DNA of 64,000 nucleotides from NCBI GenBank assembly GCA_947246685.1, contig CAMXSN010000006.1:3898-67897 (forward strand), read 5' to 3'. This document shows, piece by piece, positions 11,524-62,297 of this stretch (within the stretch, counting starts at the first letter, position 1; every line of letters begins with the position of its first letter). The position numbers were made by a program, and so were the translations under genes. The notes under the pieces were generated by a model. The model was not told where the DNA came from. It made no database searches and was given only the letters and a program-made list of their open reading frames with translations. Source of the DNA: an uncultured Clostridia bacterium (lineage in GTDB: Bacteria; Bacillota; Clostridia; Christensenellales; UBA3700).

Positions 11524-11583
11524 CTTTTATACAATATATGCATAATTTTGGCTATTATGCAGTTTAGGTCAATATAAAATAAC

Positions 11584-18919: not shown

Positions 18920-20347
18920 TCAAACTTCGTCGGCAGGCAACTCTTCCGAATTAGCGGACTGCTCTTTTGCAATAGCTCTGCGTTTATCGAGTTCTTCTTT
19001 GATAAACGCGAACCTCTCTCTGCTCAAATTCGCACGTCTCGAAAAAATTATCGAAACAAGGAATATCAATCCCGGCAGAACGCCAAGCACGATTCTTACG
19101 GCAAGCAAAGCGCCGTCAGGCTGGCGTATCACGCTGCCGTCCATGCTCTCCACGTATCCGAATGCACCGAGCACAGCCGATACGAGAGCTATGGAAATTC
19201 CGTTGGCGACCTTGTACATAAACTGCGTTATACCGTAATACGCGCCCTCTCTTCTCGAGCCGTTGACGTATTCGTCCACTTCGACTACGTCTGGCACGCT
19301 GGCGTACGGCAAAATCTGTATTGCGGACATTCCAAAGCCTGCGAAAACGCATAGAAGCACCGTACTCCAAACGATTTTTGCGGGCACGAATATCGCAAAC
19401 ACTAGCACAAAAGCCATATATGCGCACGCAAAAGTATAAACTTTGTGCTTGTTGAATTTTTCGCTCAATTTTACCCAAACGAACGACGACGCGATCGCGC
19501 ATACTAGAGGTATGGCGACAAACGCCATAGCCATAGCCCCGCCGCCAAATCCCAAAGAATCGTTGATGAAAAACATAAATACCGCCATTATTATATCGAA
19601 TCCTATCATACTAAGCAAATAACACAGCATTACGTTTCTAAATTCCGGCAATTTGAAAAACTCTTTGAGCGTAAGAAAAAATCCCTTGTCGTTGAGCTCG
19701 TTGTCGTCAACTCTTTCTTTGACGTTTGCGGCGCAAAGCAACATTATGACAATAGATATAAACGCAAACACACCGGCCGATAGCAGATATGCCTTCCTTG
19801 AACTGCCCAGCAACTGATAAAACAGGCTCTCCTGTCCGTCTGCAAACAACGCAAAAAGCGCCGCGCCCATAATTATACCGACGTTGGCAAGCGCGATTCT
19901 TATTCCGTTGAGAGAAGTGCGCTCGTCGTAATTGCCAGTCATATTGGCAGTTATCGCGTTATAGGGTATGTATACGACCGTCCATGCCGTATTGAAGAGC
20001 ATATAAGCCAGCGTATAATAAATCATCTTGCCGATTTGCGCTCCGTCGCCGAAAGGCGCAAGCCACAGCAGGATAAACGCCAATCCGTACGGCGCCGCGC
20101 CAAACAGCATATAGACTCTGCGCTTACCCCACTTGCTCTTAGTCTTGTCGGATATTCTGCCCATAAAATAATCCGTGAGCGCGTCCCAAAACTTGGCAAT
20201 CAAAAATACAGCCGAAGCCAACTCGGCTTTAAGCCCTCCCACGTTGACAAAAAAATAAAGCAGATAAAAAGAGATCGCCGCAAACATAATGTTGGCGGAC
20301 AAATCTCCTAATCCGTAAAAAAACTTTTCTTTGAATTTCAATTTCAT
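18920..20347 (-). CDS. GPH-family sugar:cation symporter (MelB/YicJ-like)
   Basis: Start MKLKFKEKFFYGLGD at 20347. GRISDKTKSKWGKRRVYML is the GPH signature loop. About 12 TM spans. It begins 35 nt after the AAA+ stop with no intervening terminator. Confidence 0.8.
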   Translation of the reverse strand: MKLKFKEKFFYGLGDLSANIMFAAISFYLLYFFVNVGGLKAELASAVFLIAKFWDALTDYFMGRISDKTKSKWGKRRVYMLFGAAPYGLAFILLWLAPFGDGAQIGKMIYYTLAYMLFNTAWTVVYIPYNAITANMTGNYDERTSLNGIRIALANVGIIMGAALFALFADGQESLFYQLLGSSRKAYLLSAGVFAFISIVIMLLCAANVKERVDDNELNDKGFFLTLKEFFKLPEFRNVMLCYLLSMIGFDIIMAVFMFFINDSLGFGGGAMAMAFVAIPLVCAIASSFVWVKLSEKFNKHKVYTFACAYMAFVLVFAIFVPAKIVWSTVLLCVFAGFGMSAIQILPYASVPDVVEVDEYVNGSRREGAYYGITQFMYKVANGISIALVSAVLGAFGYVESMDGSVIRQPDGALLAVRIVLGVLPGLIFLVSIIFSRRANLSRERFAFIKEELDKRRAIAKEQSANSEELPADEV

Positions 20348-20382
20348 AATTTCACTTCCGTGCATGCCAAGCGCTGACGCTA

Positions 20383-21537
20383 TCAATGCGTGTTGCGAAA
20401 ATTCTCGTAATCATCGAGCAACTCCGCGCTGATACTCGGCGGAATCTTGTTGAACGCTTTTTCAAACATATCCGCTCTGAGAGGGATAGGACTAGAGCTT
20501 CCGCTTTGCTGAATTTCTTCGAGAGCGCATCTGCAGGCTTCCTCCACTATTCCGCATATATCTGCGGCAGAATAATACGCCGTCGTGCGGATATTGCCCT
20601 TCTTATCTTGTTCCGCCGTGAACGTCTCGGTCATATCTACGATCTCTTCCACCGTGATATCTTCTAATTCTATACCGCTGAGTTTGCTCTCTATGATAGC
20701 TTTTTTCGCGCCGAAATCGGGAGGCGTGACGTGTATCAAATGAGAAAATCTCTTATATCTGAGATAAGCGGGATCTATCACGTCGGGACGGTTGGTCGCC
20801 GCGACCATTATTCTCTTGGAACCGTCCACGCCGAATCCGTTGATTCTCTGCAGAAGTTCGGTCGTAACGGCAGCCTTGTAATCTTTGGTATCCTGTGTAC
20901 GTTTGCTGAAAATAGATTCGCATTCGTCAACAAACAGTATCGCGCCGTCGGGACATGCGTCGATTTCTTCGAATATCTGTTTGACTGCCTGCTCGGATTC
21001 GCCGACATAGGACTTGAAGATATCGGCGGGCGTAACGATGAACAACGGTAATTTCATTGCGTTGGCGATAGCCTCGGCAAACATTGTCTTACCCGTACCG
21101 GGCGCGCCGTACATAAGCATACCCAGACCGCCTTCTATCTTGTAATATTCGAGTATCGACGGATTCTGCGCCATAAATATAAAACTTCTGACCAATGCTT
21201 TGACGTTGTCCAAACCCTTGACGTCGTCGAGAGTTGTATCGGGCACTTTGCTCTTGATGACCGAGCCGTAACCTGCCGCCGCGTCGCTGAGCTGCTTGTA
21301 AAACAACTTGTATTTCTCGCTCAGCAATCTGTCTGTGCTTCTCACGGAAAGCGTGCGCGCAATTTGCGCCGCCTGAGAATATTTGGCGCGCAATACGTTG
21401 CGTTCCTCGTCGGACAGATCTTTTTTATCCTTCCTGCCGTTTAGGACGGAACGTATCTCGTCTGTGACTTTGCGGAGCGAGTTTTCCAACTCTTCCACGC
21501 CGCTGTCTTCGGTATTTCTTTTTTTATCCGCTGCCAT
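20383..21537 (-). CDS. classical-clade AAA+ ATPase with helical N-domain (Vps4/katanin-like single cassette)
   Basis: Walker A GAPGTGKT, pore loop KSYVGES, Walker B ILFVDECE and sensor-1 VAATNRPD. SRH IDPAYLRYKRFSHLIHVTPPD has no Pro-Gly and so resembles the Vps4 RRRFE type. The ~120-aa charged helical N-terminus precedes the LDDVKGLDNVK linker. RBS GAGGAG. Confidence 0.85.
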   Translation of the reverse strand: MAADKKRNTEDSGVEELENSLRKVTDEIRSVLNGRKDKKDLSDEERNVLRAKYSQAAQIARTLSVRSTDRLLSEKYKLFYKQLSDAAAGYGSVIKSKVPDTTLDDVKGLDNVKALVRSFIFMAQNPSILEYYKIEGGLGMLMYGAPGTGKTMFAEAIANAMKLPLFIVTPADIFKSYVGESEQAVKQIFEEIDACPDGAILFVDECESIFSKRTQDTKDYKAAVTTELLQRINGFGVDGSKRIMVAATNRPDVIDPAYLRYKRFSHLIHVTPPDFGAKKAIIESKLSGIELEDITVEEIVDMTETFTAEQDKKGNIRTTAYYSAADICGIVEEACRCALEEIQQSGSSSPIPLRADMFEKAFNKIPPSISAELLDDYENFRNTH

Positions 21538-21547
21538 TGTCGTCTCC

Positions 21548-22267
21548 TCAGATTATGTCGTCTATATTGATATCCCCGTCGGAACCCTTGTCCGCGCCCG
21601 TATCGGGAGCCGCGGAAGGAGCGGCGGACGAATCTTCTGCAGTTTCCCCGTTCGCCTCTGCGCGGTATTTCGCAAGCTGCTTGGAAGCCTCGTTCTGATA
21701 GCCTGCCATGACGTCGTTGCTTTTCCCGTCCGATTTTGCCATTGACTTTTTGAGCTTTTTATCGAATCCGCTCATTGCCACCAACATAGCGTTGGCAATA
21801 TTGCCGTATCCGTTGACCATATCCATAATGGCTTTCATACGGTTACTGTTCATCTTGACGAATTTTTTGATCTTGCGTCTCTGTTTCATCCTGCCTCTTG
21901 CAGAATACTGCTTGTAATTGTCAAGGCTCATCATCTCGTCGATGAATTTGAACGTATCGTCCATTATGTTGATTGTCTGCGACAGCACCTGCATTGCCTC
22001 TTTCATGGAAAACATCATTCCCACGACGTTCTGCAAGCTGAAAGTAACTGTGTAAAACATCGTCAGCACTCTGGTGTTGAAATGATCGGCGCCGTATTGA
22101 CGCTCGCTCTCAACGACTTTGCGCGCCAGATTTTCCACGGATTTCTCCAATTCGGATTTCTTACCCTCTAAAATCTTACCGTCGAGTTTTCTGAGATTTT
22201 CTTTTTGCATTTCGCTGTATGGATTGGAGAGCCTTTCTCCTCTCTCTCTGTTTCTTTCTCTTGCCAT
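21548..22267 (-). CDS. 239-aa helical protein with basic N-terminus and acidic disordered C-tail ending DGDINIDDII (ESCRT-III/PspA-like architecture, unproven)
   Basis: RBS GGGAGAA. N-terminus MARERNRERGER, long predicted helices, then Ala/Pro/Asp-rich tail SSAAPSAAPDTGADKGSDGDINIDDII. No sequence motif I can assign to a family. Confidence 0.7.
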   Translation of the reverse strand: MARERNRERGERLSNPYSEMQKENLRKLDGKILEGKKSELEKSVENLARKVVESERQYGADHFNTRVLTMFYTVTFSLQNVVGMMFSMKEAMQVLSQTINIMDDTFKFIDEMMSLDNYKQYSARGRMKQRRKIKKFVKMNSNRMKAIMDMVNGYGNIANAMLVAMSGFDKKLKKSMAKSDGKSNDVMAGYQNEASKQLAKYRAEANGETAEDSSAAPSAAPDTGADKGSDGDINIDDII

Positions 22268-22282
22268 AATTTTTTCTCCCGA

Positions 22283-23797
22283 TTAAAACTGATTGTTGAT
22301 GATGTCATTTATCTGTATGTCGCCGTCCGCCTCTTCTAAATCTTCAGACTGCTCTTGCTTATCCGCCGCGTCTTCTTTGGGGGCGGAAGTCTTTCTTGCA
22401 AATTTACGGCGTCTTTCTTCCATTCTCTTTCTCATCTCTTCTTTTTCTTTTGCTCTGTCCTCGCTCTGCTTGTTTGCAGTTACGTATGTTTGCTCTTTCT
22501 CCATAAGTTTGTTGATAGTTGCAAACCGCTCGTCGGTCATAGCCATGTGTTTTGTCTGCAGAGCAACGTTTTCCATAATATTGTCATAATAACTTATAGC
22601 GAGCGTAATATCCGACTCGGACGCGCCGTAACTCAATATATCAAGAAACTGCCTGAAATCTATATATGCGAACATAGAATAAAACAAGTTGGGTTCTATC
22701 TGCTGATACATAGTGTAGATATGTTGCAATCTCTTGAATTTGGAGAGCAGTCTGCGCATAGCGAGCATATTATTGTTCATCATATTGATACTAGCCCTAT
22801 ATTGCTCTCTTTCCATCTCTCTGATTTCCATATCCTGTTCGAGCATGGTGATTTGAGTATCCGCTTCTTCTTCCATTATTTCGCCTTCGTCGAGAGCCGC
22901 TATTACGTCGGATATATTCTTCTGAATTTCCGCGATATCGGCGTTGATCTGTTTGACTTTCTCGTATGCGTCGTTCTGTACGCTGAACTGCTCTTCAAAT
23001 GATGCCAATCTTGCAAAGAACGCGTCGCCTTTTTCTTTGACGCTCGCAATCTTTGAGAATCCCGAGAATACGTCTTCCTGATATTTGACGATATCTTTAT
23101 CCTTTGCCTGATTTCTCTTATTGACCGCCTTGGTCAGTTCGCACCATTTGTCAGCCTCGTCCAGAGCCTGTCTGAGATGGTCGTTGACGGCGTCGAATAT
23201 CATATTCCTGCCTACGTAATCTCTCCACGCGAACAGACCGTAGGAGCTGTCGCCGAGCAAATTTGCGGCGGCGTCCGCAGCGTCCAACGACGAATTGTCA
23301 AACACGCCGTCAACTTTCTCTCTCAATTCTTTGAGCATATCTTTGGACGCGATAAGAATGCCTTTCTTGTATTCGCTCTTTTCCTCGTAAATCACGTTGT
23401 CTATTCCCATCATAGAATCGTCGATATATTTCAATACTTCTTTCTTGATGTCTGCCATATTCTTTTCTCCTTTTCCCAATTTTATCTTTTTGAAAATCTG
23501 TTCTTTTTTTTCTCTGTATCCGTCAAGTTTCAGCGCCGCGTTGTATTTTGAGAGCAGCGTAGCCATTTCCGTCAGCTCGAAAATAGCGTTTTTGAGATTG
23601 CCGTCGAATCCCTTGTTGATCCCTTCTCGCAAAAGCGACTCGATATCTTCTCTTATTTCGTCGGAAAAATCTTGACAGCGATTGCTGTCGTAACCGTTGT
23701 ATTCTATATCCTTAAACTTTCTTGCGTAACTTATTTTGTTGTCTTCGAGTATACCGACAAGCTTATCCAGCCTTATCAATTCTTCTCCTCCTCGCAT
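22283..23797 (-). CDS. 504-aa coiled-coil protein with acidic C-tail ending DGDIQINDIINNQF
   Basis: All-helical, charge-rich sequence. The likely true start is TTG 23779, preceded by GAGGAGGAG and overlapping the upstream TGA as TTGA. The ATG at 23797 is the track start. Confidence 0.7.
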   Translation of the reverse strand: MRGGEELIRLDKLVGILEDNKISYARKFKDIEYNGYDSNRCQDFSDEIREDIESLLREGINKGFDGNLKNAIFELTEMATLLSKYNAALKLDGYREKKEQIFKKIKLGKGEKNMADIKKEVLKYIDDSMMGIDNVIYEEKSEYKKGILIASKDMLKELREKVDGVFDNSSLDAADAAANLLGDSSYGLFAWRDYVGRNMIFDAVNDHLRQALDEADKWCELTKAVNKRNQAKDKDIVKYQEDVFSGFSKIASVKEKGDAFFARLASFEEQFSVQNDAYEKVKQINADIAEIQKNISDVIAALDEGEIMEEEADTQITMLEQDMEIREMEREQYRASINMMNNNMLAMRRLLSKFKRLQHIYTMYQQIEPNLFYSMFAYIDFRQFLDILSYGASESDITLAISYYDNIMENVALQTKHMAMTDERFATINKLMEKEQTYVTANKQSEDRAKEKEEMRKRMEERRRKFARKTSAPKEDAADKQEQSEDLEEADGDIQINDIINNQF

Positions 23798-24924
23798 ACG
23801 TCGGAGACGAATTTATCCGTCTCTTTTTTGGACGTTCTGCCTTTCTCCGAATATTTATAAAAATCGTCGTCGTAAAAAACGCACGAATTGTATCTGCCCG
23901 CTTTTATAAGCCGCTTAATATCCGCGTTGCCGTTGTCTTCCAAGCATTTGGCTATGCCGGCAATGGTTCTTTTTTTGAGATATTTATGTCCGCCGCGCGC
24001 ATTTACGAAACACATATAAACTCCGCTGTCGGGACAGTCGCTCACGTACTGCGCCACGGCGTTGGAATTCTTAAGCTCGTAAAATTTGCCGTCGATCTCT
24101 TTGTCGTCGTATGCTTTTGCCATTTTAAGACGCAGATCTCTGCCTATGCTTTCAAGCACGGAAAAGCCGTTGTCCTCCTCGGAAAACAGACGCACGCACT
24201 CTTCTTTTGAAAGTTTGAAAATGCCGAAAACAGGAGCGCGCTCCTCGTCCGTACAACTGCGCAATGTGGCAAAAGCCACGCTTGCCGCGTCCTCGTCCTC
24301 CGCCCGTTCGCCGTATAACAGATCAAATTTATCGTAATCTCCTCCGAGATCCGTTATCTTCTCTGCCAAAGCCGCGCGCAGTTCGTCAAGACTCTCATAT
24401 CCGTCGAATTGTCTCTTGACAGCGATCTCGCGCGGAACGTTTTTTAACATATCTATCAAATATCCTGCGCACTGCAGTTTGATATCCGTCAGTTCGTCGA
24501 CGTAACGGTCGTCTCCTTCGGGAGTGTGCACGCCTCTATGAACGTTGAAAAGCACGGCTTTGTAATAAAAATACGCCACGCGCCATCTCTCGGCGCTGCC
24601 CGTATTGAAATCCACGTAGCCCCTGTCATAGTAATACCCCATACGCATAAGCGCTGAAGGATGAAACATAAACGCCGCTTCATAACACAGATTGACCGCT
24701 TTATCGAGATATTTGAATCTCGTCCTCTTGTCTTCGTTGGAAGACGTGAGCCATTTGAAATAATATTCCTCGGAGCGAACGAACAGCTCTCTGTTGAGCG
24801 CATTGATCTCCAGCTCCGTGTCCGTATCGGGGAATACGTCCTTTTTGCAATGCGGACAGCACCACCTGCCGTCATACAGCTCGAGCGGTCTGTCTATATC
24901 TTGATTGCAATTTCCGCATTTCAT
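23776..24924 (-). CDS. 382-aa protein with N-terminal Zn-ribbon, one Sel1/TPR-like repeat and an unknown C-terminal domain
   Basis: RBS AAGGAG. MKCGNCNQ...CCPHCKK is a four-Cys ribbon. AAFMFHPSALMRMGYYYDRGYVDFNTGSAERWRVAYFYYKAV fits the Sel1 repeat pattern. Confidence 0.65.
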   Translation of the reverse strand: MKCGNCNQDIDRPLELYDGRWCCPHCKKDVFPDTDTELEINALNRELFVRSEEYYFKWLTSSNEDKRTRFKYLDKAVNLCYEAAFMFHPSALMRMGYYYDRGYVDFNTGSAERWRVAYFYYKAVLFNVHRGVHTPEGDDRYVDELTDIKLQCAGYLIDMLKNVPREIAVKRQFDGYESLDELRAALAEKITDLGGDYDKFDLLYGERAEDEDAASVAFATLRSCTDEERAPVFGIFKLSKEECVRLFSEEDNGFSVLESIGRDLRLKMAKAYDDKEIDGKFYELKNSNAVAQYVSDCPDSGVYMCFVNARGGHKYLKKRTIAGIAKCLEDNGNADIKRLIKAGRYNSCVFYDDDFYKYSEKGRTSKKETDKFVSDVCEEEKN

Positions 24925-24938
24925 ACTGTTATCTCCTT

Positions 24939-27900
24939 TTAAGACGCCTTTCGCTCGATCTTGAAATCAATAAGCGTGTTTGTGAATTCATAATTAACCG
25001 ACGATACCGATGCCGAGACCGAATAATTGCCTACCGCGGTCGGCGCGCTCGCAAGCAGCCTGCCCTTGGAATCGTAATACGCATATCCGTTTAACTTGAT
25101 ATCCGAAGAATACTCTTTGCCGTCCTTGACTATCGTAGGAATGCCGGACGCGGTGTTCCACTGCAACGCGACGCTCTTTTTATTGATGATAAAATCGCAC
25201 GATTCATATTTAACGTCATAATTATTTATTACGCCGCTCTCTGGCAAGCTCAATGTGAGAGTGTATTTGCCGGCGTTTTTAGCGCTTATCGCACTGCCGC
25301 CGTATATAGGCGTCCCGAAATCTTCTTTCTTATCCTTTGTTGCAAGACCGCTCAACGTAAAGCCGAAATTGCCGCCGGTCTTGCCGTCGTAAGTCTTTGC
25401 CGACGCAACGGCTTTCGCCACAAGAGTACGTTTGGTTATCTCAAAATCCTTGGAGTCGTCGCCGATAAGTTGATAATTATCCGCATAAACGCCGCCCAAA
25501 GCGACCTGCGCCGTATACTTGCCGACGTTGAGTTGGGCGGAAGTATACTTCAGCGAAGAGATCATTGCCGTTTGCTGATTTGCAACCGCGTTTGTTATAG
25601 AGGACACTCTTGCGTTGTGATTCTGACCGTCGTAAACAAACTTGGAGTATTTCTCGTCCCATACAACTCGTACTTGGCGTTTAACTATCGAATAGGACGT
25701 TTCAACGGGCGCGTCAAGTCTGTAATTGCCATCAATAGGAAGATCCGCGCCGACGGTATAGCCGTCTCCGACGTTGACGTTGTTTTCATACCCGTAATAA
25801 TCTATCGGCACGGGCTTATCTCTGTCCAGCGCGCCTATTACCATCAAGTCGGGGTGCTGCGCGACGCCGGCGTAAACCAATTGAACGTTCTCCGCCCATT
25901 TTGCCGTCACGGTAGCCCTTTCGATGACGTAATCGCAGTTGCGATTGACGATCGTATAATTGCCGTTTGCGGTGCTGACTCTAGCGACGTAAGCGCCTGC
26001 GTCAATACCGGCGCCCGTCACGTCGGTTTGAATTTGACCGTCTTTTGCTATACCTGTTACGGTAGCGTTAGGCGCCTTGTAACTTCCGTCGTATACGAAT
26101 TGAGTATTAGACCACACCGCCTCAACTTCTATGGGAAGTATCTCGTAGGCAAAACTTCCCCCCGAGCCTATTTTGTAACAGTCTGCTCCGACCGTAAGTT
26201 CTATATTCGCCGTGTATCTGCCGGCATCGGAATTGATATGATTGGATATAGCGTATTCGATACCGTCGCCTTCAATCAACTGCGACGTATCGTAATCTAC
26301 GTAAACTTCTTTATTCTCGCCGTCGTATACGTCCTGATCAAAATCCGTCCAGACAAAATCCAAAGCCTTTTTATCAACCGACACGTCTATGACGAAAGTC
26401 TCTTGCGAACTGAGAGAGGTTTCTTCGGAAGTCGCTACGACTATGACGGAAAACGCTCCGCTCATGCTCGGAAGAACTCTGTCGTATATCATTTGAGCGC
26501 CGCTCTGCATAAACGCGTCTTTGCAATACCATGAATACGACAAATCATATCCCGACTTAGGCGCCTTTGCCGCCGCCGACAGAATCAACGTATCGCCGTA
26601 AACGTACTTCTCTGCGTTGGGCGTAATTTTGCCGTCATAAGGTTTTTTCAGCGTCCATTCCGGTTCGACTGCCGTCGCGTTGTAATATCCGTTCGCATTG
26701 CGTCTGAGGTAATCGGCGAGACTTGAAAATTCGTTGACGCCGCATTTCCATTTGATATCGAATCCATCTCTCGACAAATCTTTGAGGAGCTCGTCCGCGC
26801 GGCTGAGAGCCGTCAATCTGTAATTGCGTATACTGCCGCCTGCCTCTATCGTCTTGATCGAATCGTCAAAACTGAACTTGGTATCGTTGCCGTCGCCTAT
26901 CTCCACGGCGAAAACTCTCTCGAAATTAACTTGGGCTTTAACGACGTTGTTAACTATGCTTACGCCTTGCAGATTTCCTTGAGACGTGACTATTTCTTTG
27001 AGCATATAGCCGTTGTTTTGATAATTCCAATACAAATCTTCGTCGTCGGACTTATCAGAATATTTTACGTAATCGACTTTGTCGCCGCAGAACGACAAAT
27101 CAAACTTATTGCCTTTTTTGCCTATCCACGTGGGAATATAGCTGTTGTCGGTCAATATCAAATCGTCTGCGTTGTAGGCAAACGTAACGTACGCTTCGTC
27201 GTCGGCAAGCCCCGTAGGATAAACGTTGTTTGCCAATACCACGCTCTGTCTTTCCGAATATAATTCCTGTCTGTAACTGTCGATGAGCTTTTTGTTTACG
27301 CCCAATTTCAACGTGTCGTTCAACTCGCCTAAATAATATTTCTCGTCGTACAGACGCATCCTTTTTTCTCCGACTATTTCGACGCTGGCTATGGATGCGT
27401 CGGCAAACAGAGCGTAACTGACAGCCGTTACGTCCTTGCCGTTGAAAGTTAGAGGTACGCGCACCTTATCGCTTCTGCCCTCGAGCACTCCGTCGGCAAA
27501 ATACGAATCGCTGGCTTGGTCGTATTTGAAAGCCAAACTCCTGTATTCGTCTACGTAACCCTGTCCGAGAAAACCGTAATCCATTATATATACCGAATAC
27601 GCTCCCGATATCGCCACCGTTAACGCGCTCATGGCTATAACGGTCGCTTTGACCCACGGTTTTTTCTTGAGTATCGGATAAAGCGCCGCTATCGTAACGG
27701 CAACAAAACTGACCGCATGCGCAACTGCGAACAAAGCCGTCGCCGCGCCTGTCGAATAGGTCAGCTCCCCGCCGCTCATAACTCCCAACGTAGAACACGC
27801 GAATATAAACGTCAAAGCAAGATAAACTATCCACACCGTGAGCGAATATCTAAAACGGAAATTGGTAAACACTATGCCCACGATAAACAAAGCGTCAAAG

Positions 27901-28097
27901 ATCAGATTGAACACTGGCAGCACGATAAAACGCGCGTCGAAGCCCGATACAGCACACACTATCAGCAACACGAGGTCGCACACCGCCGCGGTAATGGAAG
28001 CGATGAGCAAAAATAGCTTGCTGCCGCCGAACCGCTTGCGGTTGGCGGAAGAATAATCTATATTTTCGCTGCCTGAATATAAGCCGTTTCTATTCAT
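24939..28097 (-). CDS. 1052-aa polytopic membrane protein with a large extracytoplasmic region ending in six MBG/YDG-type repeats
   Basis: RBS AAGGAGG and an ATGA overlap with the upstream gene. Five hydrophobic helices lie in aa ~29-170. The last 477 aa form six ~75-85-aa repeats, each with xVxW...(V/T)YDG...G(K/R)Y...NY...(F/Y)xIxK. Confidence 0.75.
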   Translation of the reverse strand: MNRNGLYSGSENIDYSSANRKRFGGSKLFLLIASITAAVCDLVLLIVCAVSGFDARFIVLPVFNLIFDALFIVGIVFTNFRFRYSLTVWIVYLALTFIFACSTLGVMSGGELTYSTGAATALFAVAHAVSFVAVTIAALYPILKKKPWVKATVIAMSALTVAISGAYSVYIMDYGFLGQGYVDEYRSLAFKYDQASDSYFADGVLEGRSDKVRVPLTFNGKDVTAVSYALFADASIASVEIVGEKRMRLYDEKYYLGELNDTLKLGVNKKLIDSYRQELYSERQSVVLANNVYPTGLADDEAYVTFAYNADDLILTDNSYIPTWIGKKGNKFDLSFCGDKVDYVKYSDKSDDEDLYWNYQNNGYMLKEIVTSQGNLQGVSIVNNVVKAQVNFERVFAVEIGDGNDTKFSFDDSIKTIEAGGSIRNYRLTALSRADELLKDLSRDGFDIKWKCGVNEFSSLADYLRRNANGYYNATAVEPEWTLKKPYDGKITPNAEKYVYGDTLILSAAAKAPKSGYDLSYSWYCKDAFMQSGAQMIYDRVLPSMSGAFSVIVVATSEETSLSSQETFVIDVSVDKKALDFVWTDFDQDVYDGENKEVYVDYDTSQLIEGDGIEYAISNHINSDAGRYTANIELTVGADCYKIGSGGSFAYEILPIEVEAVWSNTQFVYDGSYKAPNATVTGIAKDGQIQTDVTGAGIDAGAYVARVSTANGNYTIVNRNCDYVIERATVTAKWAENVQLVYAGVAQHPDLMVIGALDRDKPVPIDYYGYENNVNVGDGYTVGADLPIDGNYRLDAPVETSYSIVKRQVRVVWDEKYSKFVYDGQNHNARVSSITNAVANQQTAMISSLKYTSAQLNVGKYTAQVALGGVYADNYQLIGDDSKDFEITKRTLVAKAVASAKTYDGKTGGNFGFTLSGLATKDKKEDFGTPIYGGSAISAKNAGKYTLTLSLPESGVINNYDVKYESCDFIINKKSVALQWNTASGIPTIVKDGKEYSSDIKLNGYAYYDSKGRLLASAPTAVGNYSVSASVSSVNYEFTNTLIDFKIERKAS

Positions 28098-29752
28098 TTC
28101 GCTGCCTCCTTGTCGGAATTGCCCTTAGGCGCGCTGAGATAACCGCTGCTCTTGGCGGTATCTTTATTAAATATAAGCACAGATTCGTCGATCATAAACA
28201 TAATGCAATCTTCGTCTTCCTTGCAATATTTCTTTTTGTTGAGACTGCCTATTCTCTTGACCAAAGACAGCATTCCCGAATATTTGCGATATAGCTTATT
28301 ACCCTGTTTGTATTCCGCGTCGTCTATCGCGTCTATGCCCAATTTGGTTATTTTGCAGAAATCGCAAACGTAATCGGTCGAATTAGTTTCGGAGTAAAAC
28401 GATCTTCCGCAACATGAACAACGCGCAATTTTATCTTTAGGCACCAACGTCATTCTGTCTCTGACAAAGGCAAGATTCTTAGTATATCTAGCTATTCCGT
28501 CTTCGCAGACGTATACGACCTCGGGATGCGGACAGCGTTTGCATTTTCTCACTCCGCCGTCAAGCACGGCAGTATCGTCCTCGCAAACGTATTTGACGCA
28601 TCTGCCGGCAAGTCTCGCGTTCTCCGAGCAACTAATCCTGAGCAAGTGCGAAGTAAACGTTCCGCCGGATTTTATCTGTCTTATTATCTCTTCGCTAAGA
28701 CCGAGCCCTTGATGGGCAGGATTTATCAACGCTGTTTTCTCTACTCCGTCAAATACGTATTTGATCTTATTGAACTCGATAAGAGTAGATTTTTTGCGGC
28801 AGCTGTTGCAATAAAGACTCAACCTGCCTCCTATGCCCAATATCGCTTTGAGCGCGACCTTGCCGTCTAGTCTTACGTCGTAGTTATCTTTTCTCCACTG
28901 AAAATGCAGGACGTTGAGAAGAGACAGATTTAGGCACGTCAAATCAACGTTGTCGTTGGGTCCCTTCTCCACCATAATTCCCACGGCGTTCTCGTCTCTG
29001 CCGTCGGCTAACACGACGTAATCCGACAAATCCGCTCCTTGAGAATTACCGTCGGGATATACGAGTTTGTCCAAAGCATTGACGACGGTATCGGTAAGTT
29101 CCGCGCTGTTTTGCATAAGTTCATCTTCTTCCCTTTCCGAATCGAACGTGGAAAGATACGAGTTGATGACTTCGGCTTCTTCCTTGCCGTAAGGAAGTAT
29201 TTTTTTACCTACTTTTCTAAAAAACACTTTGCCTAGCACCGGCACCGCTTCGCCCGTTCCGTCGGTGATCTCCAACCTCAACGAGGCTCCGTAAACGTCT
29301 TCCAAACTCTCCGACTCGTCGCCGCGTCTAATATCGAATACGTAATTATCAAAGAAGCTCGATAGCACGTTGTTTATCAGCGCACAATGACTTTCTATCA
29401 ACTCGTTGGATATTACGTGCCTTCTGGGGCTGTATTCGACGATAGAATAATTGCGGTGAAAATGTTCCTTGACCGACTCGACGAACATAAGCCATTCGGC
29501 GGTGTCGTTTTTGACGCTCTCGCCTCTGAACATTCCAAACCATGACGCCCCGTTGTCGCCCATTACCGCATTGAACGAACCGTCGTCGCGCGCAGCCGCG
29601 CCGCGAGCCAATATAAATTCATGCGAGGGAGTAACTATCCTGTCTGCGTCCGCCGACAAAACCGATCCTTCTTTTATGCAATTTTCGCGGTACAATTTCA
29701 CCACGCTGTCAAACGTCTTGCCGTATTCGCTTCCAATATAAATCTTAGCCAT
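28094..29752 (-). CDS. 552-aa hypothetical protein with several CxxC Zn-ribbon-like pairs in the C-terminal half
   Basis: RBS GGAGGCGGT. CNSCRKK, CKRCPHPE and CSCCGRSF...CDFC. No other recognisable motif. Confidence 0.65.
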   Translation of the reverse strand: MAKIYIGSEYGKTFDSVVKLYRENCIKEGSVLSADADRIVTPSHEFILARGAAARDDGSFNAVMGDNGASWFGMFRGESVKNDTAEWLMFVESVKEHFHRNYSIVEYSPRRHVISNELIESHCALINNVLSSFFDNYVFDIRRGDESESLEDVYGASLRLEITDGTGEAVPVLGKVFFRKVGKKILPYGKEEAEVINSYLSTFDSEREEDELMQNSAELTDTVVNALDKLVYPDGNSQGADLSDYVVLADGRDENAVGIMVEKGPNDNVDLTCLNLSLLNVLHFQWRKDNYDVRLDGKVALKAILGIGGRLSLYCNSCRKKSTLIEFNKIKYVFDGVEKTALINPAHQGLGLSEEIIRQIKSGGTFTSHLLRISCSENARLAGRCVKYVCEDDTAVLDGGVRKCKRCPHPEVVYVCEDGIARYTKNLAFVRDRMTLVPKDKIARCSCCGRSFYSETNSTDYVCDFCKITKLGIDAIDDAEYKQGNKLYRKYSGMLSLVKRIGSLNKKKYCKEDEDCIMFMIDESVLIFNKDTAKSSGYLSAPKGNSDKEAAK

Positions 29753-29763
29753 ACCGCCTCCGC

Positions 29764-32571
29764 TCAGTTATCCATGGACAGAATTTCTTTTATATCCGCC
29801 ACTTTGTCAGATTCTTTCCTTAGATTGTTGCAGAAAGACTCGCCGTTGTCGTGTTTGAAATCCCACGACGCCTTGATATACGCCGCAAACGTCCTTGCAA
29901 TCACGGGATATAGATAACCTCTTTCGTGATTTTGTTCGCACTTGGGACAACGCGCAATCCATTTCTCGTCAAACGATATTACGTGAGGTCTGGGAGAACA
30001 CTGCGAATAATCGCACGATCCGCACAGTTCAACGCTGGCTTTACCTACGCCGTACCTGCACTTCTGCGGACATGACGAACGGCTGGAACAGCTTGCGCAC
30101 AGACTCTTGAGTTCAACTGCGGAAATATTGCGATTGAGCGCATAAGCGTTGAGCACGCTGCACTTACCTTTGAGCTCGCTCTTGAATCTCTGACAGTGCA
30201 ACATCGAGCATATCTTGGAACAGTAATAATCTCTGTCGCCTTTATCTCCGCTGCTGCACAGCGATCCTCTGTCCGTATCCGTCTTGGATATACACGTGTA
30301 TCCGCCGTCGCCCACGCTTCTGCCGAATACCGAACCGCACGTGCCGCACTTGAATTCGTACACGTTTATCTCTTCCATAACCGTGCCTCGGGGATCATCC
30401 TGAATACACTGCCTTTTTGCTATACAGAAAAGATTGTTTTTCTTCTTGCGCGCATCGTATTCTTCTTTTGTATAAAGCGCCACTTTGCCGCAAGCGGGAC
30501 ATCTGAGCGCAACCATACGCTCGTTGTTACTGCCCGCGATAATCGTCGCGTCGCCGCTGTTGCTGGAAAGCAATCCTATACTGTTGAAGTACGCAAGAGC
30601 AAAACCTTCGAGCTTATTCATATCTGCAAACGAATATATCTTGACGTCGCTAGACTGTCCGAGACGGAATATTCTGCCTATTCTCTGATCCATAGACAAC
30701 GGATCGGGCGTGACCTGGAAGTTGATGATGATTCTGCTGTCCTGCAAGTTTACGCCCTCGGTAAACGACGGGTCGGTAACGAGTAACACCGCGTCTTCTT
30801 TGGATGTAAATTCGTCTATAACCTGTCTTTTGTTATCGTCTCTGCCTATTAATATCCTTGATGAAAATTCGCCGTCCGCGGCAAGTTCCGCACCGACTTT
30901 TTCCCATTGACGGTACCCTTTGCTTGTCTTGGGCAAGTCGTAATCGAAAAATACCAACGCTCTCTCGCCCGGATGTTCGCGCAGAACGGATTTCATCTCC
31001 TCGAATTTATACGCAAACGTATCTTTATCAGCCGCGGTGAAGATAAATTTGTTGTCGCATTCTCCCGCGGCTTTTCTTGAGAATTGCTCCCAATAAAATT
31101 TAAGCGAATTTTTCTTTTCAAAAACTTTTTCGTCCCCGAAAGATTTTAGTCCGCCCAAAATGTTGGGCACCAATATCTCAGCATATTTCTCCTGAGCGTC
31201 GCCGTGCAAGGAAATTTCCTGCGCATAGTCTTTCAGCGAATATGCTCTGCCGTCGACGTTGAGCGCTCGATTCCCGTTGATTACGTCCAGACTTGCTTCC
31301 ATGTCGCAACCGTCTCCGTATTTGAACCTTATTATCTTAGGAGCGTTTTCTTTGACAGGGAAGAAATATCTGTTGAAAACGAATCTGGTCTTGGTAAGTT
31401 CGTTGGGCTGACGGATCATTATGGTGCGCAACACGCCGTTGTGATAAGCGCTCGCTACTCTTTTGAGCACCTCGGAGCGTATTGGACCGCTGTCTTTAAG
31501 AAACTCTTCTCTTAGCAATTGTTTTTCGCCCTGAGTATAAGATTGAAATTTCTCGTATTCTCCCTTTGCTTTCAAAAAAGCTTCAAACTGAGCTGAGTAA
31601 TTGTTGTCTACTTCAAACTTCTTAACCGCGGTGATAAACTCTGCCACGGTATTCGCGCCTCTGCACACGTTCTGCTTGTAATAGAGTTTCTCTTTTCTGT
31701 ATTCGTCAGTGCGCTCTTTATCCTCTTTTATATCGAAATCGTCGGGATTGCCGCCCTTACATCTGATAAAATACCACAGTCTGAACATCTTTTCCAGATT
31801 GCCGGAATGAGGCGTAGCGGAAAGAAGCACGCAGTAAGTGCTGTTGGCTTTTTTCTTTGTCTGCATAAGCAAAGACAGTAGTTTCATAGCCTTTGCATAT
31901 CTGCCTTCTTCCGCGCACAGATGATGAGCCTCGTCGACGACAACGACGTCGAATAACACGTTTTTAATCGCGCTTTCTCGCCAGTTGACGAAATCCTCCG
32001 CCTTGACGATAAACGGCTTTGTCGGTCTGACGGTCGCTCCGTCCGACAAAGTCTCGCACTCGCCGAACTCCGCGTCGGCGACTCCGACAAGCACGCCTTT
32101 GCCCAGTCCGAATTTATTTTCAAGCACGTCTATCCAGCTGTCGTAAACCTGCGACGGCACGACCAACAACAGCGATTTCATCTTACCTCTGACGGCAAGC
32201 TCGCTCAGCACTGCGCACGCCTCAAAAGTTTTGCCGCTGCCCACAACGTCCGCGAGCAGACCGAAGCCGCGCAGCTCCTTGAGAAAATGCGTCGCCGCAA
32301 GTTGCTGATGTCTCAATATTACCTGATTGCTGTTGACGCTCCTATGCACATGCGATTTGGTTATTCCGTAATCTCCGCCGTCGGATTCGTATACTTCCGG
32401 CGCTATTTTCAACGCGGCGAAATCGTCGTATCTGTCCAGTTCTTCGGCGCAGTGGGTAAGCTCGGCTATCCGCGCGTCGAAGGGGCGTATCTCACCTGCA
32501 ATCTTCGACCTCTGAATATCCCTGTCAAAAGCTCCGTCCGTACATTTAAGAGTAAATCTTTTCTTTTTCAT
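29764..32571 (-). CDS. SNF2-family (RapA/HepA-like) helicase/translocase with ~200-aa Cys-rich C-terminal module
   Basis: Start ATG 32571, 5 nt after GGAGGGG; the track start 32589 is a TTG. Motifs LLADVVGSGKTFEA (I), VVVDEAHH (II), LLSATPHSG (III), TEGVNLQ and QRIGRIFRLGQ (VI). The tail holds about 21 Cys, including CPAC, CGTC, CASC, CGSC and CPKC. Confidence 0.85.
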   Translation of the reverse strand: MKKKRFTLKCTDGAFDRDIQRSKIAGEIRPFDARIAELTHCAEELDRYDDFAALKIAPEVYESDGGDYGITKSHVHRSVNSNQVILRHQQLAATHFLKELRGFGLLADVVGSGKTFEACAVLSELAVRGKMKSLLLVVPSQVYDSWIDVLENKFGLGKGVLVGVADAEFGECETLSDGATVRPTKPFIVKAEDFVNWRESAIKNVLFDVVVVDEAHHLCAEEGRYAKAMKLLSLLMQTKKKANSTYCVLLSATPHSGNLEKMFRLWYFIRCKGGNPDDFDIKEDKERTDEYRKEKLYYKQNVCRGANTVAEFITAVKKFEVDNNYSAQFEAFLKAKGEYEKFQSYTQGEKQLLREEFLKDSGPIRSEVLKRVASAYHNGVLRTIMIRQPNELTKTRFVFNRYFFPVKENAPKIIRFKYGDGCDMEASLDVINGNRALNVDGRAYSLKDYAQEISLHGDAQEKYAEILVPNILGGLKSFGDEKVFEKKNSLKFYWEQFSRKAAGECDNKFIFTAADKDTFAYKFEEMKSVLREHPGERALVFFDYDLPKTSKGYRQWEKVGAELAADGEFSSRILIGRDDNKRQVIDEFTSKEDAVLLVTDPSFTEGVNLQDSRIIINFQVTPDPLSMDQRIGRIFRLGQSSDVKIYSFADMNKLEGFALAYFNSIGLLSSNSGDATIIAGSNNERMVALRCPACGKVALYTKEEYDARKKKNNLFCIAKRQCIQDDPRGTVMEEINVYEFKCGTCGSVFGRSVGDGGYTCISKTDTDRGSLCSSGDKGDRDYYCSKICSMLHCQRFKSELKGKCSVLNAYALNRNISAVELKSLCASCSSRSSCPQKCRYGVGKASVELCGSCDYSQCSPRPHVISFDEKWIARCPKCEQNHERGYLYPVIARTFAAYIKASWDFKHDNGESFCNNLRKESDKVADIKEILSMDN

Positions 32572-32585
32572 TATCCCCTCCGCCG

Positions 32586-34538
32586 TCAATCGGCTCCTTC
32601 CACGTCGAATTCCTCGACGCCTTGGAATTGAAGAACTATGTCTTTGTATCTGGCAAACTTAACGTTTGTCGGGTCGTCGGCTTTTCTTACGGCTATGGTG
32701 TCGTAAGCTCCGTTCTTGGATACGTTGTTGCGTATGAAAGGCTGCGCTCTGCCGTCTCCGTCGATCTTAACTCCCTCAAGGAAGTATAACACGCCTTTTA
32801 TCTGCACCGGTATGGGCGATTTTTTGCCTTCTTTGCAATAATAAAACAGTATCTTGCCTTTGCTCTTACCGCCCGACACCACTCGCAGACCTATCTTCGT
32901 CTGCATCTTCACGCGCTGTTCGGAGTCAGGTTCGCCTATCACGTATACTCCCGACGATTCCGTCGTAGAGAAAATCTCCTCATTGTCTACCGACCCCGAC
33001 CATCTGTCCATATATTTGAGGCTGGATTCGGTATAATACGTTCCTCCGTCGGGAGGAAGTATCTGACCTCTTTTGAGGAAAATGTCCAGTATCTTATAGT
33101 ATTTATCTCCGCGCTTGCGATATTGCCAAGTACCGTAAGACAATGCTACCGCCGTCTTGATCTCGTAATTATTGAGCGCAACGATAGCGCCGCCTACCGC
33201 GGGCGCAAACAAAGAATCTTCGTATGAAAGTATCCTGAATCCGTCGTCTCTGTTCTCGTAATCGTCAAACGTGACGACGTCGACGTTCAATCCCGCTTTG
33301 CGTAGTTTGGAGCGCAGATAACCTATCAGCCCGTAGGTCTCCGTAACTCCTCCCGACAAGAGAAGTTTGTCCACGTCTTTATTGATACTTCTGTTCAACT
33401 CCTCGATAATATAATCCGCTATCTTAGCCGCCACGCCGCAATCGCCGTCGATACCCACCGCCTTGCAAAAGTCATCTCTCGTCAACATTCTCTGCACCGT
33501 CACGTCTCTATAGAGCGATATAGGCGCTCCGTCTGGAAACACGTTGTCGTAAGTTGCGTCGGGAAGAGACAGCGCCGTCTTGACCTTTTTGATCTCGGTC
33601 ATAAACAAAAACTGTTTAGAATGCAATCCCCGCTCGGCGATATATCCGTCTTCTCCCGACGGCGGCGCGCCCGGAGTCTCTCTCGCCCCGATGCTGTCTT
33701 CTATATAATCTCTTAACGCAATGTCAAAATCGTTGCCGCCTATCTCCATAGGCTCGTTGTGACCGTCAACGCCGTCCACAAGCACGCTCTTGACCTTTCC
33801 GCCCGAAAGACTGAGTTTTGCAACGGAAATATCCTCTTCGCCCATATCGACGATAATAACGCCCTCTCCGCCGTCCAAAATACCTCTGTGAAATGCAAAA
33901 AGTCCCAGCGCTCTCGTAGATGACATTACCTTCTTAACATTAGAGCCGACCGAACGCTCTACCAAACGCGTCAACTCCTCTATGTATTCCGCGCCCGCTT
34001 TGGCAGGATAAATCAGCGAATAATCGACGCTGTCGAATGCTAGATTTCTCTGCGCTTGCAATCTCTCTATCGCAGGCAAAACAGTCTTAGAAAATAGATA
34101 ATCAAAAAACTCTTCGCACACCTGCATCGGCGTCCTGTCTGCGCAAAAAGTCATGTCGAGATCTTTGGCAAGCATCAGATTTTCGGAAATCTTGCGTTTT
34201 GTCGGAAAATAAAATTTGGGGAAATCTCTGCCTTCTCGATAACATACGCGATTGCTATCGCATACGGCTTTATCCGATCTTTTCAGAAGCAAAGACAGCA
34301 GCGTTTTGATCTTGACGACAGTAATAAAAGGTCTGTCGGTGCCTTTATACGCTTCGTCTCCGAACAGCCATCTGCCGTTGTCCTCGTCGTAATACGCTAT
34401 CGCCGACACGACCGCGCTGCCCGTGACTTCCCTGGGCGCCAACTTTCCGTATACCGCCTTATTGGATTCTTTATAGGCAAAAGCAACCTTTACTTTGTCG
34501 CTGCCGACGTCGATTGCAACCTCTAAATTACCTTGCAT
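32586..34538 (-). CDS. divergent Hsp70-like (actin-fold) ATPase with beta-rich C-terminal domain, no lid
   Basis: RBS AAAGGAG. Motifs AIDVGSDKVKVAF (phosphate-1), IIVDMGEEDISV (phosphate-2), EIGGNDFD, LLLSGGVTETYGL and PAVGGAIVA. The C-terminal ~190 aa resemble an SBD-beta (TAVALSYGTW...ILPP...). No EEVD. Confidence 0.8.
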   Translation of the reverse strand: MQGNLEVAIDVGSDKVKVAFAYKESNKAVYGKLAPREVTGSAVVSAIAYYDEDNGRWLFGDEAYKGTDRPFITVVKIKTLLSLLLKRSDKAVCDSNRVCYREGRDFPKFYFPTKRKISENLMLAKDLDMTFCADRTPMQVCEEFFDYLFSKTVLPAIERLQAQRNLAFDSVDYSLIYPAKAGAEYIEELTRLVERSVGSNVKKVMSSTRALGLFAFHRGILDGGEGVIIVDMGEEDISVAKLSLSGGKVKSVLVDGVDGHNEPMEIGGNDFDIALRDYIEDSIGARETPGAPPSGEDGYIAERGLHSKQFLFMTEIKKVKTALSLPDATYDNVFPDGAPISLYRDVTVQRMLTRDDFCKAVGIDGDCGVAAKIADYIIEELNRSINKDVDKLLLSGGVTETYGLIGYLRSKLRKAGLNVDVVTFDDYENRDDGFRILSYEDSLFAPAVGGAIVALNNYEIKTAVALSYGTWQYRKRGDKYYKILDIFLKRGQILPPDGGTYYTESSLKYMDRWSGSVDNEEIFSTTESSGVYVIGEPDSEQRVKMQTKIGLRVVSGGKSKGKILFYYCKEGKKSPIPVQIKGVLYFLEGVKIDGDGRAQPFIRNNVSKNGAYDTIAVRKADDPTNVKFARYKDIVLQFQGVEEFDVEGAD

Positions 34539-34600: not shown

Positions 34601-34629
34601 AGTATAGCACACGCTCATAAGGTTTTCAA
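34601..34629 (-). promoter_or_regulatory. strong sigma-A-type promoter of the nine-gene operon
   Basis: Minus strand reads TTGAAA - 17 nt - TATACT with a TG at the extended -10 position (GTGTGCTATACT). It lies ~60 nt upstream of the Hsp70-like ATG. Confidence 0.65.
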
Positions 34630-34730
34630 TACTATTTATTATATTATTTATACAAAGGCGTTGTAGATTTTACAAAAATATTTTACAATTTTGGCATAGA
34701 CTATTCTAATATTATCTAAGAAATTAAGGA

Positions 34731-34759
34731 AAAATTTAACCGTCGAAAAAACGACGGTT
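34731..34759 (-). terminator. rho-independent terminator insulating the operon from the upstream gene
   Basis: aaccgtcg-aaaaaa-cgacggtt hairpin, followed on the minus strand by AAATTTTT. Confidence 0.65.
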
Positions 34760-62290: not shown

Positions 62291-62297
62291 AATAAAC

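Follow-up and report, generated by a model that had tools for sequence, protein, structure and literature searches.

An SNF2-family gene with a cysteine-rich C-terminal domain

We analysed a 64,000-nucleotide stretch of contig CAMXSN010000006.1 (positions 3,898 to 67,897) from an uncultured Clostridia bacterium, hereafter the window, which contains an operon of eight closely spaced or overlapping minus-strand genes (A to H, 20383-34538). The second of these, gene B, encodes an SNF2-family ATPase ending in a Cys-rich domain, which is referred to below as the tail and is the subject of this analysis. Gene B and its parts are as follows (aa, amino acids; pLDDT, predicted local distance difference test score).

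29764..32571, minus strand: gene B, 935 aa, SNF2-family ATPase with Cys-rich C-terminal domain
31720..32286, minus strand: SNF2 N-terminal RecA lobe, aa 96-284, with Walker A GSGKT, DEAHH and SATP; Pfam SNF2-rel_dom, E 1.6e-11
31009..31719, minus strand: inter-lobe region, aa 285-521, outside the Pfam domain matches
30658..31008, minus strand: SNF2 C-terminal RecA lobe, aa 522-638; Pfam Helicase_C, E 3.3e-9; motif VI QRIGRIFRLGQ
30514..30567, minus strand: linker SSNSGDATIIAGSNNERM, 18 residues, aa 669-686, from the helicase core to the Cys-rich domain
29938..30501, minus strand: Cys-rich module, aa 691-878, with 21 Cys, 20 of them near-invariant
29767..29937, minus strand: C-terminal helical end of the tail, aa 879-935, with helices predicted at aa 895-904 and 911-933 (pLDDT 73-80)

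Gene B starts at an ATG at position 32571, with a ribosome-binding site (GGAGGGG) 5 nucleotides ahead and the stop codon of the upstream gene just before it. Both RecA lobes exceeded the Pfam gathering scores (PF00176, 44.3 bits against a cut-off of 24.9; PF00271, 37.4 bits against 23.5), and Walker A (GxGKT), DExH, motif III (SAT) and motif VI (QxxGRxxRxGQ) are all intact, placing the protein in the SNF2/SWI2 family of helicase superfamily 2 (SF2). An earlier, sequence-only reading of this DNA had reported a complete motif set, and every member was located, at aa 111-115 (GSGKT), 213-217 (DEAHH), 251-254 (SATP) and 629-639 (QRIGRIFRLGQ), each also being retained in the family consensus. Judged by these features, gene B encodes an intact SNF2-family ATPase, for which translocation on double-stranded DNA (dsDNA) is predicted. 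The same reading had singled out a long helical insertion between the lobes; such a region does exist at aa 285-521, but it is family-typical and nothing special, since a helical inter-lobe region is a normal feature of SNF2 proteins, and it is the least conserved part of this one (mean column conservation 0.37, compared to 0.61 and 0.54 for the two RecA lobes). No nuclease or methylase domain was detectable in gene B by Pfam, PADLOC, NCBIfam or PHROGs, in agreement with that reading.

With the core of gene B alone as query, at least 381 clusters at 90% identity were recovered; among the 120 listed, nearly all were of about 930-990 aa, together with three truncated entries of 713-739 aa, and the few that bore names carried only "DEAD/DEAH box helicase" or "SNF2 family". 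The most conserved stretch of the whole protein is the linker (0.66), which is probably a flexible or binding element because its AlphaFold confidence is low (pLDDT 49-64).

Conservation and distribution of the tail

The sequence-only reading had counted about 21 Cys and five CxxC pairs after the helicase core, and the module at aa 691-878 holds exactly 21 and exactly five (CPAC at 691, CGTC at 742, CASC at 825, CGSC at 850 and CPKC at 875), with C914 following further on and 10 Cys in the first 690 residues. Against a background of 1.9%, the Cys frequency in the long open reading frames (ORFs) of the window, the binomial probability of at least 21 Cys in 188 residues is approximately 1.6e-10. 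No other ORF in the window exceeded 13 Cys per 188 aa, second place being taken by gene C, the next gene in the operon.

To assess conservation, the tail was aligned across 59 sequences, comprising the window protein and 58 representatives of 50%-identity clusters. Twenty of the 21 module Cys were present in 49-58 of the 59 sequences (≥83%), with C772 alone varying, which bears out the proposal that the tail is a genuine cysteine/metal-type module; C914 was retained in 45 of 59. Very few other positions are conserved (R751, Y758, K786, P862, F867, W871, P876 and G885), along with residues of the C-terminal helical end that include F895, F913, C914, E920 and L931. Because conservation is almost confined to Cys, it is the set of ligands that is under selection, rather than a surface or an active site. 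Family members carry 19-24 Cys in the tail, whose net charge runs from -9 to +15, a spread that speaks against conservation of a surface for binding DNA.

With the tail as the only query, a word-indexed search across 5.8 billion proteins returned 11 clusters, every one a fragment. When 1.84 billion 50%-identity representatives were searched exhaustively by profile, 94 clusters were returned, in which the significant full-length matches were SNF2 fusions of 909-1143 aa with the match at the C-terminus. The tail domain is therefore family-specific, being fused to a single SNF2 clade in every full-length protein recovered. Some database entries give the tail as a separate ORF of 165-209 aa, as would be expected if it were unreal, that is, the product of chance Cys enrichment, of a frameshift in a pseudogene or of misassembly. 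These short entries trace to a scaffold gap, to short contigs or to contig ends, and a separate tail gene was rejected as a candidate on these grounds; in the metagenome-assembled genome (MAG) GCA_948847035.1, for instance, a 10-N scaffold gap (L002:6540-6549) cuts the SNF2 gene into ORFs of 722 and 209 aa, and the "stand-alone" tail entries of about 205 aa appear to come from gap artefacts of this type. The SNF2-tail fusion is unbroken in 31 genomes and in more than 100 clusters of about 930-990 aa, its Cys are conserved and its fold is confidently predicted (see below), so that the artefact explanation is already refuted by conservation and its chance of being right is as good as nil.

Two of the fragments deserve separate mention. 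A 165-aa tail fragment (L001:9959-10498) ends a 29-kb contig otherwise bearing SusC/SusD-type, Bacteroidota-like genes, and is probably a chimeric assembly or a truncated remnant. On a 1.2-kb ENA contig (L040:1-1217), the module lies in an ORF (P0103) that is open at the contig start, where it is preceded by hydrophobic, transmembrane (TM)-like segments and not by an SNF2 lobe; the overlapping next gene resembles the N-terminus of gene C. We regard this fragment as ambiguous and as the sole possible exception to the tail-SNF2 fusion.

Predicted structure of the tail

An AlphaFold2 model of the tail, built from a 64-sequence alignment, had a mean pLDDT of 85 and a predicted template modelling score of 0.75, with ten-residue block means of 81-98 over aa 689-888. 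In this model the first third is beta-rich, with hairpins that bear the CPAC (691) and CGTC (742) knuckles; the centre (aa 784-858) is helical and carries 11 conserved Cys within 75 residues; and the end consists of the CPKC (875) pair followed by a short helix and then by two C-terminal helices. As modelled, the last ~250 residues of gene B form an autonomous, confidently folded domain.

Library searches with this domain gave no significant match. Foldseek against the PDB returned nothing at E ≤0.001 (best E 0.7, TM-score of about 0.1), phmmer found no match among PDB sequences, and no significant match appeared in Pfam, NCBIfam or PADLOC; the tail is thus a new domain at the level of the libraries searched by Foldseek, phmmer, Pfam and NCBIfam. 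A match to a common zinc-finger accessory domain of RapA-like proteins would have counted against the sequence-only reading, and no such match occurred. Foldseek against BFVD gave zinc-ribbon sub-matches only, of about 55 residues (all at E > 0.07; target-normalised TM-scores of up to 0.64, at E > 1), and permissive Pfam and NCBIfam scans of ten family members gave sub-threshold matches to Zn_ribbon_8, CPxCG_zf and FmdB CxxC_CxxC_SSSS at the 691, 742 and 875 knuckles. Taken with the model, these suggest that the tail is probably assembled from zinc-ribbon-like elements and a helical Cys cluster.

Zinc or iron-sulfur in the tail

The 20 conserved Cys would suffice for about five tetracysteine metal sites in a domain poor in regular secondary structure. 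As placed in the model, the CxxC pairs at 691, 742 and 875 are candidate Zn sites of the zinc-ribbon or treble-clef type, and the helical centre may bind either Zn or up to two [4Fe-4S] clusters. Its Cys spacing is C784-x3-C788-x4-C793, C804, C825-x2-C828-x5-C834-x3-C838 and C850-x2-C853-x4-C858, within which the CX2CX5CX3C motif at C825, C828, C834 and C838 is conserved in 55-57 of 59 sequences, a motif that by itself is not diagnostic. CX2CX5CX3C is the spacing of the SPASM auxiliary-cluster motif, and the CX2CX5C triad is used by [4Fe-4S] sites of the AddB/Cas4/EndoIII type.

These motifs raise the alternative that the tail is mainly an iron-sulfur (Fe-S) domain, in which one or two [4Fe-4S] clusters in aa 784-858 would gate the SNF2 motor as a sensor of redox state, oxygen or DNA state, by analogy with the clusters of XPD/DinG, AddB/Cas4 and EndoIII/MutY. 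The central motif matches the SPASM spacing and includes the CX2CX5C triad, the central spacing is kept family-wide, the centre is modelled as helical and not as a beta-ribbon, and its 11 conserved Cys fall within 75 residues; the hosts, moreover, are Christensenellales-type gut Clostridia, which are anaerobes, and a very weak match to a TcuB 4Fe-4S protein was found (E 0.21). The likeness to the SPASM/twitch auxiliary [4Fe-4S] domains of radical-SAM enzymes extends to a Cys-flanked beta-hairpin followed by helices upstream of the motif, although gene B has no radical-SAM domain, the domain upstream of its tail being SNF2, and the first hairpin Cys of the tail (C772) is not conserved. However, no SPASM, ferredoxin or other Fe-S profile (PF13186, TIGR04085 and the Fer4 families) was detected in the ten family members even at a permissive threshold (Pfam and NCBIfam, E ≤10), Foldseek returned no Fe-S domain, the only sub-threshold tail matches were Zn-ribbons, no Fe-S maturation genes lie nearby, and a coincidence of spacing is plausible given 20 Cys. 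A SPASM or ferredoxin identity for the central motif was accordingly rejected at the profile level and stays a motif-level lead. A mainly Fe-S tail is in our judgement doubtful, though it retains a real chance of being correct; an all-Zn or mostly-Zn tail is ranked above it, as roughly twice as likely. A mixed model, for example three Zn and two [4Fe-4S], is kept alive by the motifs alone.

The other genes of the operon

The remaining features of the operon are listed below, and five of its eight proteins received no above-threshold family assignment.

34738-34759: terminator-like hairpin of the gene preceding the operon
34601..34667, minus strand: two overlapping sigma-70-like matches ahead of gene A, promoter candidates from a consensus scan that are not evidence of function
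32586..34538, minus strand: gene A, 650 aa, Hsp70/ASKHA-like ATPase whose C-terminal part is rich in beta structure
28094..29752, minus strand: gene C, 552 aa, second Cys-rich protein
24939..28097, minus strand: gene D, 1052 aa, N-terminal region of about five TM helices (aa 25-170), followed by repeats of the Ig/PKD-like and MBG (YGX) types
23776..24924, minus strand: gene E, 382 aa, Zn-ribbon (CxxC...CxxC) at the N-terminus, Sel1/TPR-like repeats, and a C-terminal domain in which DDD is invariant
22283..23797, minus strand: gene F, 504 aa, coiled-coil-like protein, long and helical, with an acidic linker; ends in a short amphipathic motif
21548..22267, minus strand: gene G, 239 aa, helical, Met-rich protein with a Ser/Gly/Ala linker and then an invariant C-terminal DINIDDI(I/V)
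20383..21537, minus strand: gene H, 384 aa, AAA+ ATPase of the classical clade (Cdc48/PAN/CdvC/Vps4-like), preceded by an N-terminal helical extension of about 90 aa

The Pfam HSP70 match of gene A was sub-threshold, with weak profile matches to the nucleotide-binding domains of DnaK/Hsc70; its consensus has phosphate and adenosine motifs of the Hsp70 type (IDLGSDTxKVAY, FDMGEEDISV, EIGGNDxD and LSGGxxETYGL), and distant orthologues carry precomputed PF00012 matches and, in some sources, the name "Hsp70 family protein". Gene C begins 11 nucleotides past gene B and overlaps gene D by 4 nucleotides. Its C-terminal half contains 12 invariant Cys (C273, C315, C375, C385, C390, C404, C407, C445, C448, C463 and C466, with C510 at ≥90%), arranged in CxxC and Cx4C pairs, which makes it the second most Cys-dense ORF of the window. 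Gene C gave a weak profile match to an eL43-type Zn-ribbon and has no family assignment, its AlphaFold model (pLDDT 76) had no match in the PDB by Foldseek, and its Cys-rich half was rejected as a paralogue of the gene B tail (hhalign probability 6.5%).

In gene D the TM helices were identified by hydropathy, and the repeats by PDB profile matches to Ig-like proteins and to the LAR_0958 adhesin repeat, with orthologues matching MBG_2 at up to E 1.7e-75. The protein is predicted to have its N-terminus inside, five TM helices and extracellular repeats, on account of hydropathy, positive-charge distribution and the adhesin-type MBG/Ig repeats; D41, D68 and H127 are conserved intramembrane residues. 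No other operon gene evolves as fast or varies as much in length: complete orthologues span 840-1669 aa, and identity between orthologous loci is 25-38% where gene B has 43-73%.

Gene E matched a Sel1 repeat protein below threshold (E 0.025). Gene F, for which CIS_TMP and GvpG matches were sub-threshold, was rejected as a contractile injection system (CIS) tape-measure or gas-vesicle protein; its C-terminus (DIQINDII...) follows the acidic linker and resembles the end of gene G, and a similar motif is frequent in F orthologues. Through these terminal peptides, F and G may dock onto the N-domain of the AAA+ protein or onto the Sel1/TPR protein. No Pfam or PDB match was found for gene G, and a role as an ESCRT-III/PspA-like partner of the Vps4-like AAA+ gained no support (hhalign probability 0.1% against yeast Snf7 and E. 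coli PspA). Gene H matched Pfam AAA (E 3.9e-32) and, below threshold, Vps4_C (E 1.1e-3); its NCBIfam matches to CDC48 (1.7e-43) and CdvC (1.2e-37) were both far under their cut-offs, and its PADLOC match was IetA-like (1.5e-31; IetA/TRIP13-like). Beyond the SNF2 and AAA+ cores, PHROGs gave one weak match only, between gene G and a family of unknown function (E 4e-4).

Distribution and divergence of the operon

A genome scan of one genome per GTDB species with two strict peptide patterns identified 31 loci, all in gut or faecal MAGs and labelled Christensenellaceae, Christensenella, Borkfalkia, Pumilibacteraceae, Clostridia or Eubacteriales; because the two patterns were strict, the true distribution is at least this wide. 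Gut metagenomes commonly contain the family, single 90%-identity clusters comprising up to about 200 sequences from Christensenellales-type Clostridia. The order A-B-C-D-E-F was kept in the 31 species-level genomes as far as each fetched contig extends. Gene G was detected in 13 and gene H in 11 of the 31, and for the remainder either the fetched DNA stops short or divergence puts the genes beyond detection. The order Hsp70-like, SNF2-Cys, C, D was retained in three metagenomic loci that are more distant, and one of these, on a 2.39-Mb scaffold (L039), kept all eight genes, so that genes G and H are confirmed solely in the closer relatives and in L039. Wherever the context was readable, the gene B clade is the second gene of this conserved chromosomal operon; the sequence-only reading had proposed asking whether homologous tails occur only in this operon context, and they do throughout the readable loci, with the short-contig fragment L040 again the sole possible exception.

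As a yardstick of divergence, where the ribosomal proteins S6 and S18, encoded beside gene B, were about 86% identical, identity was about 66% for B, 55% for A, 49% for C and 33% for D, by which gene B appears to drift at a roughly ordinary rate and gene D much faster. The pattern is consistent with a lineage-restricted system that is passed on largely stably and in which diversifying pressure acts on one component; it is atypical of a mobile defence island yet compatible with a defence role. A prophage, plasmid or other mobile origin was rejected: the operon showed no GC anomaly, its uncharacterised proteins had no PHROGs match beyond the weak one of gene G, and the tail had no homologue in IMG/VR, PLSDB or INPHARED.

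Comparison with known SNF2 systems

The closest solved sequence to gene B was RapA (E 1.4e-12), covering aa 87-263 only, and the two share the character of a bacterial SNF2 protein of about 950 aa without a nuclease or methylase domain (HepA; PDB 6BOG, 4S20). The NCBIfam RapA model also matched (E 1.1e-23), with 83.5 bits against a cut-off of 576, in two stretches of the RecA lobes only (best at aa 85-256), which indicates that the N-terminal region and the tail are not RapA-like. To our knowledge, RapA lacks a Cys-rich domain at its C-terminus, and neither an Hsp70-like nor an AAA+ gene has been reported alongside it. These matches, together with a gene that is chromosomal, apparently largely stably inherited and flanked by housekeeping genes, would suit a housekeeping, RapA-like SNF2 protein associated with RNA polymerase, whose tail would be a lineage-specific zinc-finger decoration binding the polymerase or nucleic acid and whose neighbours would be unrelated. 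We consider this improbable, given the low score and its restriction to the lobes, the equal or better scores of the DrmD, BrxHII and DpdE models, and an arrangement of eight tight genes whose order is kept down to 43% identity in B, and as A-B-C-D beyond, while the flanks change by clade.

Known defence systems provided the best PADLOC matches of gene B, namely BrxHI/II (1.3e-30), DrmD (1.8e-27), HmaA (2.7e-25), DpdE (4.2e-21) and ZorD (9.6e-11), and gene B might accordingly be a divergent member of one of them. Every one of these matches, however, is confined to the generic RecA lobes, and the NCBIfam scores lie 5- to 70-fold under the equivalog cut-offs. For DrmD, two NCBIfam models gave 106.7 and 89.1 bits against cut-offs of 610 or 950, again in the lobes only, and PADLOC found none of the DISARM partners DrmA (helicase), DrmB (DUF1998), DrmC (PLD) or a methylase among the operon proteins. 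The BrxHII match in PADLOC was restricted to aa 78-269 and 579-649, and the BREX partners PglX methylase, PglZ and BrxC were found neither in the operon nor among the neighbours scanned. DpdE reached 93.9 bits against a cut-off of 500, with no dpdA-K (7-deazaguanine) partners by PADLOC; ZorD reached 21 bits against 1500, gene B lacks a nuclease domain, and no operon protein matched ZorA, ZorB or ZorC in PADLOC. Obligatory partners, including the Hma methylase and ATPase, are absent from the operon and from the 64-kb window as far as scanned. Known-defence membership is thus largely refuted by these tests, and we give it a still smaller chance than the RapA-like alternative. Since scores and partner genes fall short in every case, gene B belongs to the SNF2 family and not to DrmD, BrxHII, DpdE, ZorD or RapA.

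Several resemblances extend beyond sequence scores. DrmD (DISARM), BrxHII (BREX), DpdE (Dpd) and HmaA (Hma) are, like gene B, large bacterial SNF2 ATPases in multi-gene systems, although in the libraries searched no 20-Cys C-terminal domain is described for any of them. Zorya likewise combines in a single operon a membrane component whose acidic residues within the membrane are conserved, coiled-coil elements and an SNF2 ATPase of the cytoplasm, whereas the membrane protein here has predicted extracellular Ig/MBG repeats, and an Hsp70-like and an AAA+ protein are added. Cys-ligated metal sites on or in SF1/SF2 motors are also known from DUF1998 (DrmB/YprA-MrfA), which is helicase-associated with four putatively metal-binding Cys (PMC11090510), and from the Fe-S domains of XPD/DinG and AddB/Cas4. 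Each of these modules carries 4 Cys and one metal site and is recognisable by profile, in contrast to the 20 conserved Cys in about 190 aa of the gene B tail, which sits at the C-terminus of an SNF2 protein and not on a DEAD/DEAH or SF1 motor.

Hsp70-containing conflict systems resemble the present operon in combining a divergent Hsp70-like ATPase with repeat and TPR/Zn-ribbon proteins in a multi-gene operon (GTPase-centric systems, PMC7159879; CoCoNuT CnuD, PMC11090510). Neither paper describes an SNF2-Cys-rich fusion in this gene order, and a full-text literature search found no description of the gene combination. The known systems of this kind (CoCoNuT and GTPase-centric) were rejected as candidates, no GTPase, McrB/McrC, tubulin, HEPN or effector-associated domain being present here. 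By analogy, the logic of the operon would be closest to Zorya and to helicases with accessory metal domains, with homology limited to the ATPase core.

Proposed role of the tail and its operon

We propose that the tail is a metal-scaffolded adaptor that tethers a DNA motor to a membrane-linked multi-ATPase complex, a reading to which we give about an even chance. Conservation of the ligands alone, a variable surface and the lack of any catalytic motif lead us to prefer a structural adaptor to an enzyme. In this scheme the Cys would ligate about five metal centres and so scaffold the adaptor domain, which would dock the dsDNA-translocating SNF2 motor onto partners encoded in the operon. The favoured partner would be the gene C protein, as gene C is adjacent, translationally coupled and Cys-rich and its adjacency persists on L040. 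The partners would in turn link the motor to a membrane complex anchored by D, which would provide a fast-evolving extracellular face; the Hsp70-like and AAA+ ATPases would control assembly and disassembly of this complex, and the C-terminal tags of F and G might be used in such ATPase-regulated assembly.

The most speculative part of this proposal is that the complex might couple envelope events, sensed by the repeats of D, to ATP-driven action on DNA, following an anti-phage logic analogous to that of Zorya. Our best guess places envelope-triggered action on DNA, incoming or chromosomal, slightly ahead of a lineage-specific cell-biological function.

Several observations weigh against these proposals. 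The flanks of the operon are housekeeping genes that vary by clade (rpsF-ssb-rpsR; Tex and L19; MetH and MTHFR), no integrase or defence island was seen among the neighbours scanned, and the three collections searched for tail homologues yielded none. The roughly ordinary rate of gene B is accounted for by stable inheritance of a lineage trait no less well than by defence. Apart from the SNF2 and AAA+ cores, no operon protein had a PADLOC match, including the five unfamiliar partners, and no nuclease, methylase or other effector was recognisable across the operon by Pfam, PADLOC, NCBIfam or PHROGs. Comparison of gene B with defence SNF2 proteins, which the sequence-only reading had invoked, is an unproven framing when no partner matches PADLOC and the surroundings are housekeeping. 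The tetracysteine grouping of the Cys is something we infer, and what points to binding between the tail and a partner is gene adjacency alone.

SNF2 motors play central parts in chromatin remodelling and in several defence systems of bacteria, and gene B represents one with a large, well-folded, Cys-scaffolded domain that has no recognisable relative in the profile and structure libraries searched. Two operon proteins were modelled, the gene B tail and gene C, and neither has a structural match. We take the tail of gene B to mark a machine distinct from known defence or housekeeping helicases. Its metal content and partners would define a new metal-binding domain and would probably reveal a multi-ATPase system linking envelope and DNA; if it binds Zn only, the tail would still be a new helicase-accessory domain and a handle for purification of the complex.

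A bolder version, which we rate as unlikely, holds that the eight genes encode an undescribed envelope-to-chromosome machine of Gram-positive gut anaerobes, in which D would be a hypervariable surface receptor with an ion-coupled or signalling TM core, connected to the SNF2 DNA motor by way of the Hsp70-like ATPase and of a Vps4/Cdc48-like AAA+ protein that would remodel the coiled-coil subunits, and the motor's 20-Cys domain, carrying Fe-S clusters, would act as a switch or docking hub. If true, it would parallel Zorya in function while consisting of unrelated parts, and would include a new metal-binding fold.

Neighbouring features

In the window the operon is flanked by genes for a signal peptidase, SpoU, ThyX, alanine racemase and an MFS transporter. 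The last of these, an MFS_2 transporter gene downstream of the operon (18920-20386, minus strand), is shared at 90-95% identity with relatives in which the operon proteins reach only 32-81%; either this transporter has been conserved to an unusual degree or exchanged recently, or the whole operon is fast-evolving. Of two distant copies of the operon examined upstream (L036:162-1151 and L038:6963-7910), one has a WYL-domain regulator directly upstream of the Hsp70-like gene and the other a divergently oriented N6/N4 DNA methyltransferase; these were the sole defence-flavoured neighbours seen. The GC content of the window dips to 0.35 at 10001-12000 and to 0.27 at 62001-64000, and elsewhere ranges from 0.41 to 0.52.

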